This document shows, piece by piece, positions 21,935 to 35,742 of a stretch of 64,000 bases of DNA. The stretch spans positions 32,766-96,765 of the forward strand of contig CAZCCB010000001.1 of NCBI GenBank assembly GCA_964497155.1. The letters run 5' to 3'. Source of the stretch: an uncultured Nitrososphaerota archaeon (GTDB lineage Archaea > Thermoproteota > Methanomethylicia > Culexarchaeales > Culexmicrobiaceae). A program made the position numbers and the translations under genes. Under the pieces are notes generated by a model. It saw only the letters and a program-made list of their open reading frames with translations. It was not told where the DNA came from and made no database searches. Position 1 is the stretch's first letter. Each line of letters opens with the position of its first letter.

Positions 21935-22732
21935 TTGAGATTTAAGGAGTTTATGGAGAAATCATCAATTGAACATGATAGTAGAATTGTTCTGGCTCTT
22001 GATCTTTCAGCTTTACCTAAAGACTTAGACTCAAATAGGTTGAAGAATAAGGCTATTAAAATTTTAAAGGATGTTAGTCCACATATATGTGCAGTTAAAA
22101 TTAATATGCAACTTCTTCTTCCACTTGGACTTTACACTGGTATTAAGGAGATTATTGATTTAGCTCATAATCTTGATTTACCAATAATTATGGATTGTAA
22201 ATTGAGTGATGTCGGTCATACTAATGCTTGGGCTACTAAACATTATTTTGAAGCTGGATTTGATGCATTGATAGTTAATCCATTGGTTGGATGGGAGCAG
22301 GGTATGGAGCCAGTATTTAATGTTGCAAATGAATATGATGGTAAAGGCGTAATTTTACTCGTATATACTTCTCATAAGGCTGCACCTGAAAGTTATGAAT
22401 TAAATGTGGTTGATCCATTAACTAATGAAGTTAAACCATTATTCATGATTTTTGCTGAGAGAGCATTGAAATGGAATGCTGATGGAATAGTTGTTGGTGC
22501 AACTTATCCTGAGAAAGTGAAGACTATTGCCGAATTTTTGAAGGGTAGGATTCCAATTTATTCTCCTGGAATTGGAGTTCAGGGCGGTAAGATTGAGAAT
22601 TGCCTTAAGGCTGGAACCAAATATTTCATTATTGGTAGATCAATATTTCAAGCTAATAATCCTGCTAAGACTGCTGAGAAAATTAAGTTAATGATTAAGT
22701 CCTATGAAAGCAAAGTTACCTATGAATCCTAG
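21935..22732 (+). CDS. pyrF: orotidine-5'-phosphate decarboxylase family protein (PyrF-like; KGPDC/HPS superfamily not excluded)
   Basis: IVLALDL near the N-terminus and MDCKLSDVGHTNA matching the DxKxxDIxxT active-site motif. Confidence 0.5.
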   Translation: MRFKEFMEKSSIEHDSRIVLALDLSALPKDLDSNRLKNKAIKILKDVSPHICAVKINMQLLLPLGLYTGIKEIIDLAHNLDLPIIMDCKLSDVGHTNAWATKHYFEAGFDALIVNPLVGWEQGMEPVFNVANEYDGKGVILLVYTSHKAAPESYELNVVDPLTNEVKPLFMIFAERALKWNADGIVVGATYPEKVKTIAEFLKGRIPIYSPGIGVQGGKIENCLKAGTKYFIIGRSIFQANNPAKTAEKIKLMIKSYESKVTYES

Positions 22733-23672
22733 TTATTATACCAAAACCTCTAGTTCTTCCCTCTCTAAATACAAACCAATCTCCTTCAGATACGTATTCA
22801 GGTTTATAACAGAATTCTAAGTCTACGTATGCTACATCACCTGTTCTTAATGGTTCCCTGGACATCCAAGTAAATTTTGCTGCCTGTCTAATGGTATATA
22901 TGTGTAGTACTGCTTGATATCCGCGCTTAATTGTTGTTGGATGGTGAAGTATTGTTACTCTAGCTCTAAATGATTTCACTGCTCTTGGAGTTAAACTTTT
23001 ATCTAAAATACACATTCCCTTTTCAACTTCATCATAATCTAGATTTCTTAGTGCTAGACATGCTTCTTGACCTGCAATTGCTCTATCAACACTAACTCTA
23101 TTTACATGAATTGACCTTACTTTTACAAGTCTAAAGCTTCCATCCCTAAATGGTCCAAGTTGTAAATAATCATCTACTTCAACTTCGCCTTGAAGAACGA
23201 GGCCGCTAACAACTGTTCCTACACCTCTAACATTAAATTTCTCTTCAACATACATTTTGAATGGTTTCCTAACCCTCTCTTCCCATCGAAGTCTTGGTGG
23301 TAGAATATTTAGAAATAATTTAAGCATATCTAATCCTTCGCCAGTAGTATTTGAGACTAGAAATATTGGGGTAATTCTTCCACTAGCCATATTTCTGGCA
23401 GCTACAACTACATCATCGATATCATTTATTATCATCGGAATCTTATTTATTCCCGGTCTTTTTAGAATATATTGAATTTCACGTATAACTCTATTTAAAA
23501 CTTCTTTGGGAGTCATATCAATTTTAGTTATTACTATGAATACTGGAATTTTAAGTACAACTGTTATTCCTAAATGTTCCTTTGCAGTTCCAATCATACC
23601 TGCATTCGCAGCTACGCATAGCATTACATAGTCTGGTACTCTTCCAGTCACCCCTTTAAGTGTAGTTCTCAA
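22716..23672 (-). CDS. GTPBP1-like translational GTPase, C-terminal fragment
   Basis: Contains VITKIDM (NKxD-like G4) and EF-Tu-like domain II/III. Upstream in the same frame it reads ...FVDLGGHERY (G3 DxxGH) before a stop. Its frame differs from the N-terminal fragment. Confidence 0.6.
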   Translation of the reverse strand: MRTTLKGVTGRVPDYVMLCVAANAGMIGTAKEHLGITVVLKIPVFIVITKIDMTPKEVLNRVIREIQYILKRPGINKIPMIINDIDDVVVAARNMASGRITPIFLVSNTTGEGLDMLKLFLNILPPRLRWEERVRKPFKMYVEEKFNVRGVGTVVSGLVLQGEVEVDDYLQLGPFRDGSFRLVKVRSIHVNRVSVDRAIAGQEACLALRNLDYDEVEKGMCILDKSLTPRAVKSFRARVTILHHPTTIKRGYQAVLHIYTIRQAAKFTWMSREPLRTGDVAYVDLEFCYKPEYVSEGDWFVFREGRTRGFGIITRIHR

Positions 23673-23794
23673 ATAGCGTTCATGTCCACCTAAATCTACG
23701 AAGCATATTACTTTGGAGCTATTTAGAAATACCTCAGCTTCATCTAATGGTGAGGCTAAATTATAATTTACAATATTTCCAGTTTCATCGAATC

Positions 23795-24304
23795 CTAATA
23801 GGTGACTTGAAATTTATGATCATGTAGAAATCTAACTTCTTTGCTTCTCGCTAGTCCATTCCCATCATCAAGTTCACCTGAACATAAAACTCCAATAACT
23901 GTTGATTTTCCACTATCAACATTACCTAAAACTGGGATCATAAGGTAGATTGGGAAATCTTCTCTAACCATTCTAATAAGAAGTTCAGCTACAATTCCCT
24001 TCTTCCCTCTACCCTTCCTTAGAATGGTTACTTTTGCACCTATTTTTCGGGCGGCCTCATTAATCCATTTTAAACTTTCCTTCAATTCATATTCATTTAA
24101 ACCTATTAATTGCCCATCATCGCTAACTCCAATTTCATAAATGGCTTCTCCGCCGCCCTCCCTTAATCTATAGCGCATTTGAGTTGCTAATCTTTCAATT
24201 CTATCTTCATTTGGATTAATGATCTTTAACTTATATTCTACATTACCCTCCTCTTTCTCCCTATCCATTTTCTCCCAATTAATCCAAATTGACATTAAAC
24301 TCAC
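23795..24304 (-). CDS. GTPBP1-like translational GTPase, N-terminal fragment
   Basis: Contains the P-loop GNVDSGKST and ends ...RFLHDHKFQVTY* where homologs continue into the switch region. Confidence 0.6.
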   Translation of the reverse strand: MSLMSIWINWEKMDREKEEGNVEYKLKIINPNEDRIERLATQMRYRLREGGGEAIYEIGVSDDGQLIGLNEYELKESLKWINEAARKIGAKVTILRKGRGKKGIVAELLIRMVREDFPIYLMIPVLGNVDSGKSTVIGVLCSGELDDGNGLARSKEVRFLHDHKFQVTY

Positions 24305-25485: not shown

Positions 25486-25935
25486 GTGAAATTTATGGAA
25501 TTGAGTAATGTGAGTTTAGGTAAACTTAATAGAATAAGTTTAAGCGAAATCGTAAAGCAATTAAAATCTTCTTCAAAGAATGTGGGTTGCATAATTCTAT
25601 TTATTGGAATTGTTAGAGAAGAAGCTGCCTTAGGCGGTAAGGTTAATCATTTATTTTATGAAGCATATGAATCAATGGCCATTAAGAAGATGCAGGATTT
25701 AATTAATAATGTAGTCAATAGAGAAAATGTTTTTTCTGCATGTATACATCATGAACTGGGTAAGGTTAAAGTTGGGGAATTAACCATGATTGTTGGGGTT
25801 GCAGCTAAACATAGAGCTGATGGATTTAAAGCTATTCAGTGGCTTATTGATAAAGTTAAGAGTGAAGTACCCATATGGAAAAAGGAAGTAACAGATAAAG
25901 GTGATTATTGGGTTCATGAAATTAAGAAGAATTAA
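25486..25935 (+). CDS. moaE: molybdopterin synthase catalytic subunit MoaE
   Basis: VGVAAKHRADGFKAIQWLIDKVKSEVPIWKKE matches the MoaE signature. 149 aa. Confidence 0.75.
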   Translation: MKFMELSNVSLGKLNRISLSEIVKQLKSSSKNVGCIILFIGIVREEAALGGKVNHLFYEAYESMAIKKMQDLINNVVNRENVFSACIHHELGKVKVGELTMIVGVAAKHRADGFKAIQWLIDKVKSEVPIWKKEVTDKGDYWVHEIKKN

Positions 25936-25989
25936 ACCATTAGTCTTATTAGCTAAATTTTAGATTAACTTAATATCGGGGTTGATTTT

Positions 25990-26898
25990 ATGTCTAAAGA
26001 CTTAGCTTCAATTATTGAGAAGGCTTCAACTCTACTTCTAAAAGCTGCAACAACAATTCTCCCACCAGATGTTAAAGAGGCATTAATTAAAGCTAGAGAT
26101 ATTGAAGACAATCCATTAGCGAAATCGCAATTAAATGCCATATTAAAGAACTGTGAAATAGCTGAGAAAGAAGGTAAACCTATTTGTCAAGATACTGGAC
26201 TGATAATATTTTACTTAAAAGTTGGAGAGAACTTTCCAATTAAAGGCAAGTTAAGTGAAGTCTTAAGTAAAGCAACAATTAATGCTACACGTGAAGTTCC
26301 ACTTAGACCAAATGCAGTTGACGTATTAACTAAAGTTAATAGTGGAGATAATACTGGAAGATATATTCCGTGGATTGAATGGGAAATAGTTCCTGACAGT
26401 GATATATTAGAGATTACTGCTTTTCCAAAAGGCGGTGGCAGTGAAGCTCCATGTATAGCTAAAGTATTCTCTCCAGCTCAGGGATTAAGATATGTTAAGA
26501 AATTGGTTGTAGATACTGTTGCTGATTGGGGTGCTAAACCATGCCCACCAATAGTTATTGGAGTTGGAATTGGAGGCACAATTGATATTGCAATGAAATT
26601 AGCTAAAAAATGTCTATTAAGACCAATTGGAACTAGACATGAAAATCCAGAGATTGCTAAATTGGAGGAAGAGTTACTTGAATTAGTTAATTCACTTGGA
26701 ATTGGACCTCACGGTGTTGGTGGTAAGACAACAGCATTAGCAGTAAATATTGATTATGCACATAGACATCCAGCAACTTATGCAACTGGATTAGCATTTA
26801 ACTGTTGGGCTGCAAGGAGATCTACAATGAAAGTTCACCCTAATGGTGAGGTTGAATTTGTTACTCATAAGATTTTGAATGAAATTTGGAGGAGGTGA
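25990..26898 (+). CDS. fumA: class I fumarate hydratase (Fe-S hydro-lyase), alpha subunit
   Basis: [10 protein letters not shown] motif of the tartrate/fumarate Fe-S hydro-lyase alpha subunit, followed by the beta-subunit gene. Confidence 0.8.
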
Positions 26899-32799: not shown

Positions 32800-35742
32800 T
32801 TGCAGGTGCTAAGAAAAACTAAAAGTTTATGCCCTAAATGTCTAAAAGTTATTGATGCAGAAGTATTCGTTGATGATAATAATGTTGTTAAAATAAGAAA
32901 AACATGTCCAGATCATGGTTATTTTGAAGACACCTATACTTTTTCAGATTATGAACTATATAAATGGGCCGAAAAATACGCTCACGATGGAAATGGAATT
33001 GAAAATCCATTAACAAAGGAAGTTAATGGATGCCCATTCGACTGCGGAATATGTCCAAATCATAAATCACATACAGTACTAGCCATAATTGATGTCACAA
33101 ATAGGTGCAATATGAAGTGCCCAGTATGTGTATCTGGGGACGAAATATTATTAGTCAAAAATTCACGTGAAGGTAAGTTTTTAACCTTAGAAGAAATTGC
33201 TACTTATGCTTTTAATACGATAAAGCCGATACCTCTATGTCCAAATGTCGACTATGTAAATGTTTTCCATCTCTCCATAATGGTTCCCATAGTAGAGGCA
33301 AATGGGAGAATTAAGTGGTCAAGGATAGTGAAAATTTACCGCAAAAGAAATGTTCCAAAACTACTGGAAATAGAAACCAATAGTGGTCGACGAATAAAGG
33401 TGACACATGATCATCCACTAATAATATTTAGGAATAATTGTATGCAAAAAATTCTTGCTAGAGAGTTAAAATTAGGAGATTACGTTTGCATAGCAGGTAA
33501 AATAGACTTAGGAGAGAGGAAACAAGTTAAAGAACTCGATATTCTCAAGCTTTTAGAGAAAGCCCCCTTGGAAGAACTTAATCAGGTTTATGTTAGAAAT
33601 CTCGGTTCATACTTAAAGTGGCTGAGGAGAAGTGTAGGAACTTACAAGAGAATTAGTGAAATTGCTGGGATAAATGTTTGGAATTATTGGTGGAGCACTA
33701 AAGGTTACATGCCATTAATTCACTTCTACAAATTAATTAGGAAATTTGGTTTACCATTAGAGTTTAAAAGAGAAATTAGGATAGGTGTGAAAGGCAAGAG
33801 ATATAATCTACCTGCGATACTACCAATAACAAGGGATTTTGCCCGCTTCCTAGCTCTATTTGTAGCTGAGGGTCACTTAGAGTATGTCCCTAAGCAAGCT
33901 TATAACGTAGTTATAACTGCAAAAGACGTTGAAGAAGTGCTTTCAATTCTTAAAAGGATAGGGCTTGACGCAAAAGTAGTGGATTACTCTAAGTATGGGA
34001 AAAGGCATAAAACTCCTCAAATAAAGGTATCAAATAAAATTTTAACCTTAGTTTTCCTCTATGGATTAAAGCTTGGGAGAACTGCAAGTGAAAAAAGATT
34101 GCCAAGCTTCACTCCATCATTGCCGATGGATATCATAAAGACAATTCTCTCCGAGTTATTTGACAGAGATGGATCAGTAACTCGAACTTCACGTCGTACT
34201 TGTGTAATCTATAAAACGACATCACGAATTCTTCTACAGCAACTACAATACCTGCTATCCATTTTCGGAATTTTCTCAAGAACTTACACTTCTTATTCCT
34301 CAAATAATCCGTTGGCAAAGCATGACGCCTATGAACTACAAATATCAACTAAGCCAGAGATCGAAAAACTCTTACGCTTGCTATGTAGTGAATCGAAAAC
34401 TGTCAAGAAGCTTAGAAAGCTACTCCCAAGTAAAGGTAAAACGACTTTTGAAAAACAGAGCGATATTATCTTAGATCGCGTGAAAAATATTAGGGAAATT
34501 GAGAATCTATCCAATACCGTCTACGATCTAGAAGTTCAACACTCCTCACATAACTTCCTCGTTGGAACAATTTTCGTTGGAAATTGCTTCGCTAATGCTG
34601 CAACTACAGGGTACGTATATGAGCCTTCATTAGAGCAAATTAGGAAAATGCTGATCACACTTAGATCAATAAAGCCAGTACCACCACCAGCAATACAGTT
34701 TAGCGGTGGAGAGCCAACTGTACGTAAGGACTTACCTGAAATAGTTAGGATGGCTAAGGAGGTTGGATTTGATCATGTTGAAGTTGATACTAATGGATTA
34801 GTTTTAGCTGAAAATATTGACTATTACAAAGCACTCCTAGATGCTGGAATGAGCACTATCTATTTGCAATTTGATGGATTAACTGACGATATTTACATTA
34901 AACTTAGAGGAATGCCATTAATGAAGAAGAAACTTAAGGTAATTGAAAATGCTAGAAAACTTGGTCATGAAAGTATAGTATTAGTAGTAACTTTAAGTAA
35001 AGGTGTAAATGATCATCAAATGGGAGACATAATTAAATTCGCAATGGAAAATTCAGATGTAATTAGATGTGTAAATGTTCAACCAATATCATTTAGTGGC
35101 AGAGCAACTCAACTTGAAAGACAACAATTACGAATTAATACGAGTGACTTTATGAAGCTAGTTGAAGAACAAACTAATGGATTAATAACTAGATGGGATT
35201 TCAGACCAGTACCATCAGTAGTCCCAATATCGAGAGCTGTAGGAGCACTTAAAGGAAAACGATATGTAGAATTTACTACAAGTCCCTTCTGTGGAGTAGC
35301 AACATTCTTAGTTAAAACAGATAAGGGTGAATGGGTTCCAATAACTAGGCTAGCTGATGTAGATAAATTCTTCAATGCAATGGAGAAAATTTATGAAGAT
35401 GCAATTAGAGGGAGAAAAGCTAGAGCATATATGAGAGCTATAGCAGCATTAAGGTACGTTAAATTTGGATTATTAAAAGATCTTGTATGGCCAGTAATTA
35501 AAGAGGGAAGCTATAAGGCGCTGGGAAGATTCATGAGAAGAGTAATTATGATCGGATGCATGCACTTCATGGATGTATGGAACTTCGATTTACAAAGAGT
35601 ACAAAGATGCGTAATACACTATGCACTTCCAGATGGAACTGTTAGACCATTCTGTTCACATAACAATATACATAGAGAACTAATAGAGAAAAAATTCAGC
35701 ATACCCTATGAAGAATGGCGAAGAATGGCAACATCTAAATAA
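32800..35742 (+). CDS. intein-containing radical SAM protein, COG1964-like; probable tetraether lipid synthase (Tes/GDGT-MAS) homolog
   Basis: N-terminal rubredoxin-like Cys pairs (CPKC...CPDHG) and CPFDCGICPNH. Radical SAM motif CNMKCPV-C is interrupted after CPV by an intein. After the intein the extein resumes CFANAAT...QFSGGEPT...VDTNG. The spliced product would be about 494 aa. Confidence 0.6.
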   Translation: MQVLRKTKSLCPKCLKVIDAEVFVDDNNVVKIRKTCPDHGYFEDTYTFSDYELYKWAEKYAHDGNGIENPLTKEVNGCPFDCGICPNHKSHTVLAIIDVTNRCNMKCPVCVSGDEILLVKNSREGKFLTLEEIATYAFNTIKPIPLCPNVDYVNVFHLSIMVPIVEANGRIKWSRIVKIYRKRNVPKLLEIETNSGRRIKVTHDHPLIIFRNNCMQKILARELKLGDYVCIAGKIDLGERKQVKELDILKLLEKAPLEELNQVYVRNLGSYLKWLRRSVGTYKRISEIAGINVWNYWWSTKGYMPLIHFYKLIRKFGLPLEFKREIRIGVKGKRYNLPAILPITRDFARFLALFVAEGHLEYVPKQAYNVVITAKDVEEVLSILKRIGLDAKVVDYSKYGKRHKTPQIKVSNKILTLVFLYGLKLGRTASEKRLPSFTPSLPMDIIKTILSELFDRDGSVTRTSRRTCVIYKTTSRILLQQLQYLLSIFGIFSRTYTSYSSNNPLAKHDAYELQISTKPEIEKLLRLLCSESKTVKKLRKLLPSKGKTTFEKQSDIILDRVKNIREIENLSNTVYDLEVQHSSHNFLVGTIFVGNCFANAATTGYVYEPSLEQIRKMLITLRSIKPVPPPAIQFSGGEPTVRKDLPEIVRMAKEVGFDHVEVDTNGLVLAENIDYYKALLDAGMSTIYLQFDGLTDDIYIKLRGMPLMKKKLKVIENARKLGHESIVLVVTLSKGVNDHQMGDIIKFAMENSDVIRCVNVQPISFSGRATQLERQQLRINTSDFMKLVEEQTNGLITRWDFRPVPSVVPISRAVGALKGKRYVEFTTSPFCGVATFLVKTDKGEWVPITRLADVDKFFNAMEKIYEDAIRGRKARAYMRAIAALRYVKFGLLKDLVWPVIKEGSYKALGRFMRRVIMIGCMHFMDVWNFDLQRVQRCVIHYALPDGTVRPFCSHNNIHRELIEKKFSIPYEEWRRMATSK
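33127..34584 (+). mobile_element. intein with LAGLIDADG homing endonuclease domain
   Basis: Block A CVSGDEILLVKN at the start. Two LAGLIDADG motifs (LALFVAEGHL, LSELFDRDGSV). Block F VYDLEVQHSSHNFLV and block G GTIFVGN followed by extein Cys+1. 486 aa, inserted in frame. Confidence 0.8.

Follow-up and report, generated by a model that had tools for sequence, protein, structure and literature searches.

The gene considered here lies in a 64,000-nucleotide (nt) stretch of DNA, referred to below as the window, from contig CAZCCB010000001.1 of an uncultured archaeon related to the Culexarchaeia. It occupies positions 24304-22716 of the minus strand, and the locus read as a whole is a gene for a GTPBP1-family translational GTPase that is carried in two reading frames. 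The upstream fragment (frame A, 24304..23798) begins with GTG at 24304, or with ATG at 24295, comprises 169 amino acids, and ends in ...RFLHDHKFQVTY; its C terminus reads ...ARSKEVRFLHDHKFQVTY up to the terminator, a TAG at 23797-23795. Frame A contains the N-terminal domain motif EGNVEYK (24250-24230) and the G1 motif or P-loop GNVDSGKST (23926-23900), and its final five residues, FQVTY, are an out-of-frame read-through of the downstream segment. The downstream fragment (frame B, which is frame A -1) follows a TAA at 23816-23814 and extends from 23813 to 22716 with 365 open codons, beginning ISSHLLGFDETGNIVNY...FVDLGGHERYLRTTLKGVTG and stopping at 22718-22716. ISSHLLGFD (23813-23787) comes first in it, followed by G3 (DLGGHE, 23696-23679, in the context FVDLGGHERY), G4 (TKID, 23528-23517, in ITKIDM), G5 (SNTTG, 23354-23340), and two beta-barrel domains, domain II at ~23219-23007 and domain III at ~22985-22725, all on the minus strand. 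The two frames could be joined anywhere in 23813-23798, with a net offset of -1. A two-piece minus-strand gene with this relation between its parts is what the original prediction, made from the letters and their open reading frames (ORFs), had described, and it is confirmed here.

The only ATG, GTG, or TTG of frame B ahead of the ORF body is the TTG at 23672-23670, which sits after G3. Because it is the first possible start of the frame, the downstream ORF had been listed only as 23672-22716. This ORF is real and encodes domains II and III, as had been stated, but it is merely the part of a longer frame that follows the first TTG. The source record likewise holds two separate proteins, P0121 (166 amino acids) upstream and P0014 (318 amino acids, starting at TTG 23672) downstream, and since the latter starts after G3, it would lack G1-G3.

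To identify the gene, we used a conceptual fusion consisting of frame A through the AAA at 23815-23813 followed by frame B from 23813. Against solved structures (PDB), the fusion matched 9ypg, "GTP-binding protein 1" (mammalian GTPBP1 from ribosome complexes), with an E value of 1.1e-129, and this was the sole match below 1e-30. The alignment spans fusion residues 9-515 and GTPBP1 residues 94-607, including the family-specific N-terminal domain (fusion residues 9-110 with GTPBP1 residues 94-195), for which there is no Pfam model; a Pfam search of the upstream part gave no match. In the downstream part, GTP_EFTU (profile positions 66-187 only), GTP_EFTU_D2, and GTP_EFTU_D3 were all found above their cut-offs. 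The intact ortholog P0001 gave an E value of 1e-135 with GTPBP1, and its next best match was aEF1A at 6e-24. As judged from these comparisons, the assignment of the broken gene to the GTPBP1 family, which had been suggested by the original prediction, is solid.

More than 2,000 homologs of the fusion were found, and the best 120 of them are almost all single chains of 493-547 amino acids that match over their full length, as had been expected. The closest orthologs, P0001-P0004, have 85, 81, 78, and 76% amino acid identity to the fusion. They are carried by species representatives of Ca. Culexmicrobium and by Methanomethylicota-type metagenome-assembled genomes, isolate B20_Guay2 and Ga0190363-derived contigs among them, and in these relatives the GTPase is encoded in one frame of 522-547 amino acids. 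The four closest are also syntenic with the window, sharing the gene order CxxCxxCC protein, 195-205-amino acid ORF, GTPase, and convergent OMP decarboxylase. The window gene thus has end-to-end homology with the GTPBP1/GTPBP2 family of EF1-type translational GTPases, which comprises mammalian GTPBP1, mimivirus GTPBP1-like factors, and archaeal orthologs often misnamed "elongation factor 1-alpha," and its place in the gene order matches that of the intact orthologs in Ca. Culexmicrobium and relatives. No second GTPBP1-family paralog was found within the 64-kb window. G1, G3, G4, G5, and domains II and III are all kept, G3-G5 and both domains lying in frame B and out of frame with G1. As encoded, two features of the family fail: the switch I/G2 segment and the single continuous frame, for which ~520-535 amino acids would be expected. 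Unlike the members of the family, the window gene lacks the switch I/G2 segment and has a broken frame, and on its sequence we would regard the locus as a disrupted allele of the GTPBP1 family and not as a working member.

The nature of the break was examined by aligning the DNA of the four closest orthologs (L001, L003, L004, and L005) with the window coding sequence by MAFFT. The alignment contains one internal gap of 19 nt at 23820|23819 and no other internal indel. This is in agreement with the spacing between the anchors RFLH and LLGFD, which is 39 nt in the orthologs versus 20 nt in the window. The deletion junction, 23819..23820 on the minus strand, reads CTACATGA|TCATAAATTT, and its position is the same by the MAFFT gap, gap sliding, and the protein alignments. 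In the alignment, the window has CTACATGA, the 19-nt gap, and TCATAAATTTCAAGTCAC, where L001 has CTACATGAACTCAAAACAGGTAGAACATCATCAATTTCAAGCCAT, coding for H E L K T G R T S S I S S H. The orthologs contain approximately ACTCAAAACAGGTAGAACA at the junction, which codes for (E)LKTGRT, that is, switch I/G2. The deleted form can be recognized by the string CTACATGATCATAAATTTC, whereas the intact pattern would be ...CATGAA(C/T)T(C/A)AAA.CNGGNAGAAC.TC.TCAATTTCAAG... Since 19 is 18 plus 1, the remaining 365 codons are thrown into the -1 frame. The lesion therefore differs from the 1-nt indel or single frameshift originally proposed at 23798-23812: it reads as one 19-nt deletion, placed just upstream of that interval by the alignment to archaeal orthologs that had been recommended for locating the exact break.

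The deletion affects some of the most conserved residues of the family. Across 119 homologs, the lost columns are R (119/119), T or S (119/119), S (119/119), and S (118/119), and the Glu of the HE pair, also found in 119/119, reads Asp in the window protein alignment. The G2/switch I motif HE-x3-(G/R)RT(S)S is absent from all window frames, and GRTSS, which the original prediction had quoted from homologs as part of one continuous chain, occurs in neither of the two frames of the gene. A six-residue hole over IESGRT is seen in the alignment to mammalian GTPBP1 (9ypg) as well. In translational GTPases, the Thr of switch I (G2) coordinates Mg2+ and the gamma-phosphate.

When the gap was slid through every position, the summed mismatches reached a minimum of 56-57 at 23820/23821, compared with 62 at 23813/23814 for the placement implied by the original prediction, in which HDHK is kept as a diverged HELK. 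With the best placement, the TAA at 23816-23814 takes the place of a conserved TCA/TCC/TCG codon, the second Ser of GRTSS, and thereby puts a nonsense codon into the original frame. The alternative placement turns the invariant Glu into Asp and brings His to a conserved aliphatic position. Under both placements there is additional damage immediately next to the deletion, and the TAA may have arisen as a lesion of its own or as a by-product of the deletion event. The junction forms a perfect 8-nt palindrome, ATGATCAT (ATGA|TCAT, 23816-23823, minus strand), which contains GATC and is centred on the junction. Both arms are ancestral sequence, the chance expectation is roughly 1%, and no mechanism is linked to it. 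An origin by restriction and ligation at GATC would need a left-hand GATC and was rejected, as four of four orthologs have GAA at the left flank. A search of the ortholog sequences for a direct repeat or microhomology that could explain the deletion showed only ~1 nt.

Apart from the junction, the gene shows no sign of decay. Of the other columns with an invariance of at least 97%, the window protein keeps 77 of 77. Tajima relative-rate tests, run with P0001 as the sister ortholog and with four different outgroups, were non-significant (p = 0.11-0.54), and the window branch is, if anything, shorter than that of P0001. Same-species contigs (99.1-99.9% nucleotide identity) were reached via neighbouring genes in four other assemblies, and they differ from the window at six single-nucleotide polymorphism (SNP) sites in the GTPase gene, of which the upstream half has five and the downstream half one. 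Every one of them is synonymous, for which random changes would give an expectation of ~21-23% (P of ~8e-5), or 33-34% when only transitions are counted (P of ~1.5e-3), and therefore both halves have been under purifying selection within the species. Neither extra lesions nor non-synonymous drift, as would mark relaxed constraint, was found. An old pseudogene is ruled out by the lack of other decay and by the synonymous SNPs, and the lesion, if real at all, must be very recent. The "genuine pseudogene" among the options of the original prediction is thus acceptable as a very recent loss-of-function allele and not as an older, decaying gene. Like ordinary small-deletion pseudogenes and segregating loss-of-function alleles, the window gene combines a 19-bp deletion and a premature stop with no compensating signals, occurs in one genome only, and has intact relatives; unlike ordinary pseudogenes, it is unusually young and has no lesions beyond the immediate junction.

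We consider it somewhat better than even, with a probability of roughly 55%, that the locus carries a recent strain-level loss-of-function deletion of 19 bp in the GTPBP1 ortholog of this Culexarchaeia-related archaeon. According to this interpretation, a single-copy ortholog of the archaeal/eukaryotic GTPBP1 would have taken the deletion at 23820|23819, which would strip the (E)LKTGRT codons of switch I/G2 and shift the downstream codons to the -1 frame, with the TCA>TAA change adjoining it in the original frame. The cell would be left with an N-terminal fragment of 166-169 amino acids, containing the N-domain and the P-loop, and at best also with the 318-amino acid piece without G1-G3; neither fragment could work as a GTPase. 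The deletion would be present in real cells as a young strain-level allele, possibly beside an intact one. Cells might tolerate the loss because GTPBP1-type factors probably serve ribosome surveillance instead of bulk elongation. In PMC7665888, GTPBP1 loss is reported to give a phenotype in the mouse brain during tRNA deficiency, which is weak and indirect support for the dispensability of GTPBP1.

It is also possible, with a substantial but less than even chance, that the gene is intact in the organism and that the deletion and the TAA are an assembly or consensus artefact, made at a strain-variable or thinly covered spot by, for example, a faulty tip join, gap closure, or bubble resolution. 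The source is a metagenome-bin contig (99,777 nt) and not the GTDB species representative. An independent MEGAHIT assembly of the same species (ERZ27248328, 99.9% identical) breaks precisely here: its 36-kb contig L047 ends at 23800 and its 2.3-kb contig L052 ends at 23874, leaving exactly the junction region, 23801..23873, unassembled. The end of L052 adjoins the polymorphic position 23873, where the window has A and L049, a contig from another sample, has G; a second SNP lies at 23861, and both sites are right beside the junction. L049 (ENA ERZ27227321 k141_572502, 800 nt) stops at 23850, short of the junction, and bases 23801-23849 are confirmed by no other contig. A contig end at an SNP site is less suggestive of a simple coverage gap than of an unresolved two-haplotype bubble, and a 19-nt indel together with a few SNPs within ~90 nt is a difference that bubble-merging would not collapse. 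The break pattern fits the coexistence of a deleted and an intact allele and, equally, a wrong join by the assembler of the window. The clustering of the anomalies in a gene that is otherwise flawless and under purifying selection also points toward an artefact.

Several observations stand against an artefact. Over the 14,719 window bases covered by independent same-species contigs there are zero indels, and across ~25 kb syntenic with the closest relatives (L019 and L020) no gene other than the GTPase has a match that changes frame, which rules out a generally indel-prone assembly. No repeat or homopolymer is present that would make an assembler skip 19 nt, and the 19 nt downstream of the junction (TCATAAATTTCAAGTCACC) match the orthologs, so that the window sequence is not a simple butt join of the two contigs. 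The original prediction had also considered a sequencing error in a homopolymer, but no run of at least five bases exists within 100 nt of the site. Base-calling errors do not typically take the form of a 19-nt deletion, and the idea of an error survives at the level of assembly and not of base calling.

A real young deletion allele is favoured over the artefact because a De Bruijn assembler does not normally output junction k-mers that lack read support and because there is no repeat to explain a 19-nt skip. Some of the evidence counts against such an allele. None of the independent same-species contigs extends across the junction. The junction 22-mer was not seen in any of the 53 loci compared, scans of genome and metagenome contigs for an independent junction or intact allele yielded nothing closer than 85% amino acid identity, and no same-species protein fragment spanning the junction was found among 20 short candidates scored, which is a weak negative. 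All relatives examined carry the GTPase as a single copy, and within the species the gene is subject to purifying selection; its loss may therefore be costly, which favours the artefact. A deletion and a TAA within 5 nt of each other, at the one place that another assembly failed to bridge, might just as well stem from a bad join. The window comes from a metagenome bin, and the species is thinly covered in some samples (coverage of 3.27 for the contig L050; L049 is a single-fragment contig).

Two of the same-species contigs have features of their own. Both ends of L049 (1-53 and 744-800) consist of adapter-like sequence, presumably Nextera adapter from a single library fragment, which by translation has become part of the predicted protein P0122 (...GNGLAVSYTHLTLPTTERV); apparently, adapter contamination has entered a deposited assembly and the protein databases derived from it. 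L050 (ENA ERZ584659) carries a Transposase_mut (IS256-type) gene at 1776-2585, next to MoaE. Its similarity to the window (~25896-26700) stops at 25896, at a distance of ~2 kb from the GTPase gene; this points to an insertion-sequence polymorphism between strains and shows that several strains of the species co-occur at the sampled sites.

Programmed -1 ribosomal frameshifting or transcriptional slippage in 23813-23798, resulting in a full-length protein of 529 amino acids, had been named as a recoding event by the original prediction, and we consider it very improbable. The frames do overlap by 16-18 nt where a shift would fuse them, both halves are otherwise intact, and an A3T3 stretch lies at the start of the interval. 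However, this stretch belongs to the sole XXXYYYZ heptamer near the overlap, AAATTTC (23815-23809), which the upstream frame reads as AAA|TTT|C. It is out of register for X_XXY_YYZ, and tandem -1 re-pairing would thus be to UAA and AUU. No stimulatory structure was detected in the downstream RNA: the fold of 23830-23700 (131 nt) has a minimum free energy of -16.8 kcal/mol versus an average of -19.1 for shuffled sequences (z = +0.66), 149 of 200 of which fold equally well. For slippage, no A or T run is long enough. The two-frame arrangement was not found in any relative examined, the orthologs all being single ORFs in which the 19 nt are present; short GTPBP1-like fragments of other lineages are broken elsewhere, none being split at this site, and all keep GRT(S/T). 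The fused product, with the predicted junction peptide ..RFLHDHK-ISSHLLGFD.. (VRFLHDHKISSHLLGFDETGNIVNY), would still lack the invariant R-T-S-S residues of switch I. Programmed -1 frameshifting is known in archaea from the alpha-L-fucosidase gene fucA1 of Saccharolobus solfataricus, with an A-AAA-AAT site. The likeness to that system is limited to overlapping 0 and -1 ORFs that jointly resemble one protein; the window has neither an in-register slippery heptamer nor a stimulator, its arrangement is not conserved in relatives, and its join removes essential residues, whereas programmed frameshifting restores a colinear protein. A literature search on the recoding or splitting of archaeal GTPBP1 returned nothing relevant.

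A functional gene fission, in which each ORF would yield its own polypeptide and the two would combine into an active split GTPase, seems to us equally improbable. The annotation of P0121 and P0014 as separate proteins and the internally undamaged state of both ORFs might suggest it. However, frame B has no start before TTG 23672, which means that ISSHLL...DLGGHERY would stay untranslated, and switch I is missing altogether. No relative examined has two genes, in agreement with the single chains described above; separate halves in relatives, which according to the original prediction would speak against a split gene, were not seen. The break results from an out-of-frame deletion, and no stop/start pair has been gained, as is typical of real fissions. 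Least probable of all is that a non-canonical -1 shift at CAU-AAA-UUU produces a GTPBP1 variant without switch I, which, if true, could be a nucleotide-state-locked regulator or a dominant-negative ribosome-surveillance factor.

Two further genes of the window deserve mention. The OMP decarboxylase gene (21935-22732, plus strand) and the GTPase gene are convergent, with a 17-nt overlap of their 3' ends (22716-22732). The same overlap is present in L047 and L048; it is 4 nt in L003, L005, and L006 and absent from L001 and L004. The tail-to-tail layout is compact and leaves no space for an intergenic terminator. At 32800-35742 (plus strand), an intact ORF of 980 amino acids encodes an HMPTM-type radical-SAM enzyme (Zn_ribbon_HMPTM, residues 3-46; Radical_SAM, 596-748). 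It holds an intein of ~490 amino acids with a LAGLIDADG homing endonuclease (Intein_splicing, 168-595; LAGLIDADG_3, 449-526), inserted right at the CxxxCxxC iron-sulfur motif (..CNMKCPV|CVSGDE ... IFVGN|CFANAA..). The C-terminal splice junction of the intein reads GN|C, the usual form being HN|C, and the radical-SAM orthologs of the closest relatives (L019 and L020; 490 and 529 amino acids) have no intein. This gene gave the appearance of a second broken gene, but its two-piece match is explained by the intein, and the ORF is intact.

For annotation, the coding sequences of 166 and 318 amino acids merit merging and flagging as one disrupted GTPBP1-family gene, and the locus does not belong among candidate archaeal recoding sites. 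The case also illustrates that a "one frameshift" reading derived from protein strings can hide a larger deletion, which anchor nucleotide counts or an alignment of ortholog DNA expose. Nothing here is new in kind, as the gene behaves like any small out-of-frame deletion allele, and its importance beyond annotation is small. If real, the deletion would amount to a natural knockout and would suggest that a Culexarchaeia-related archaeon can do without its GTPBP1 homolog, at least for a time.

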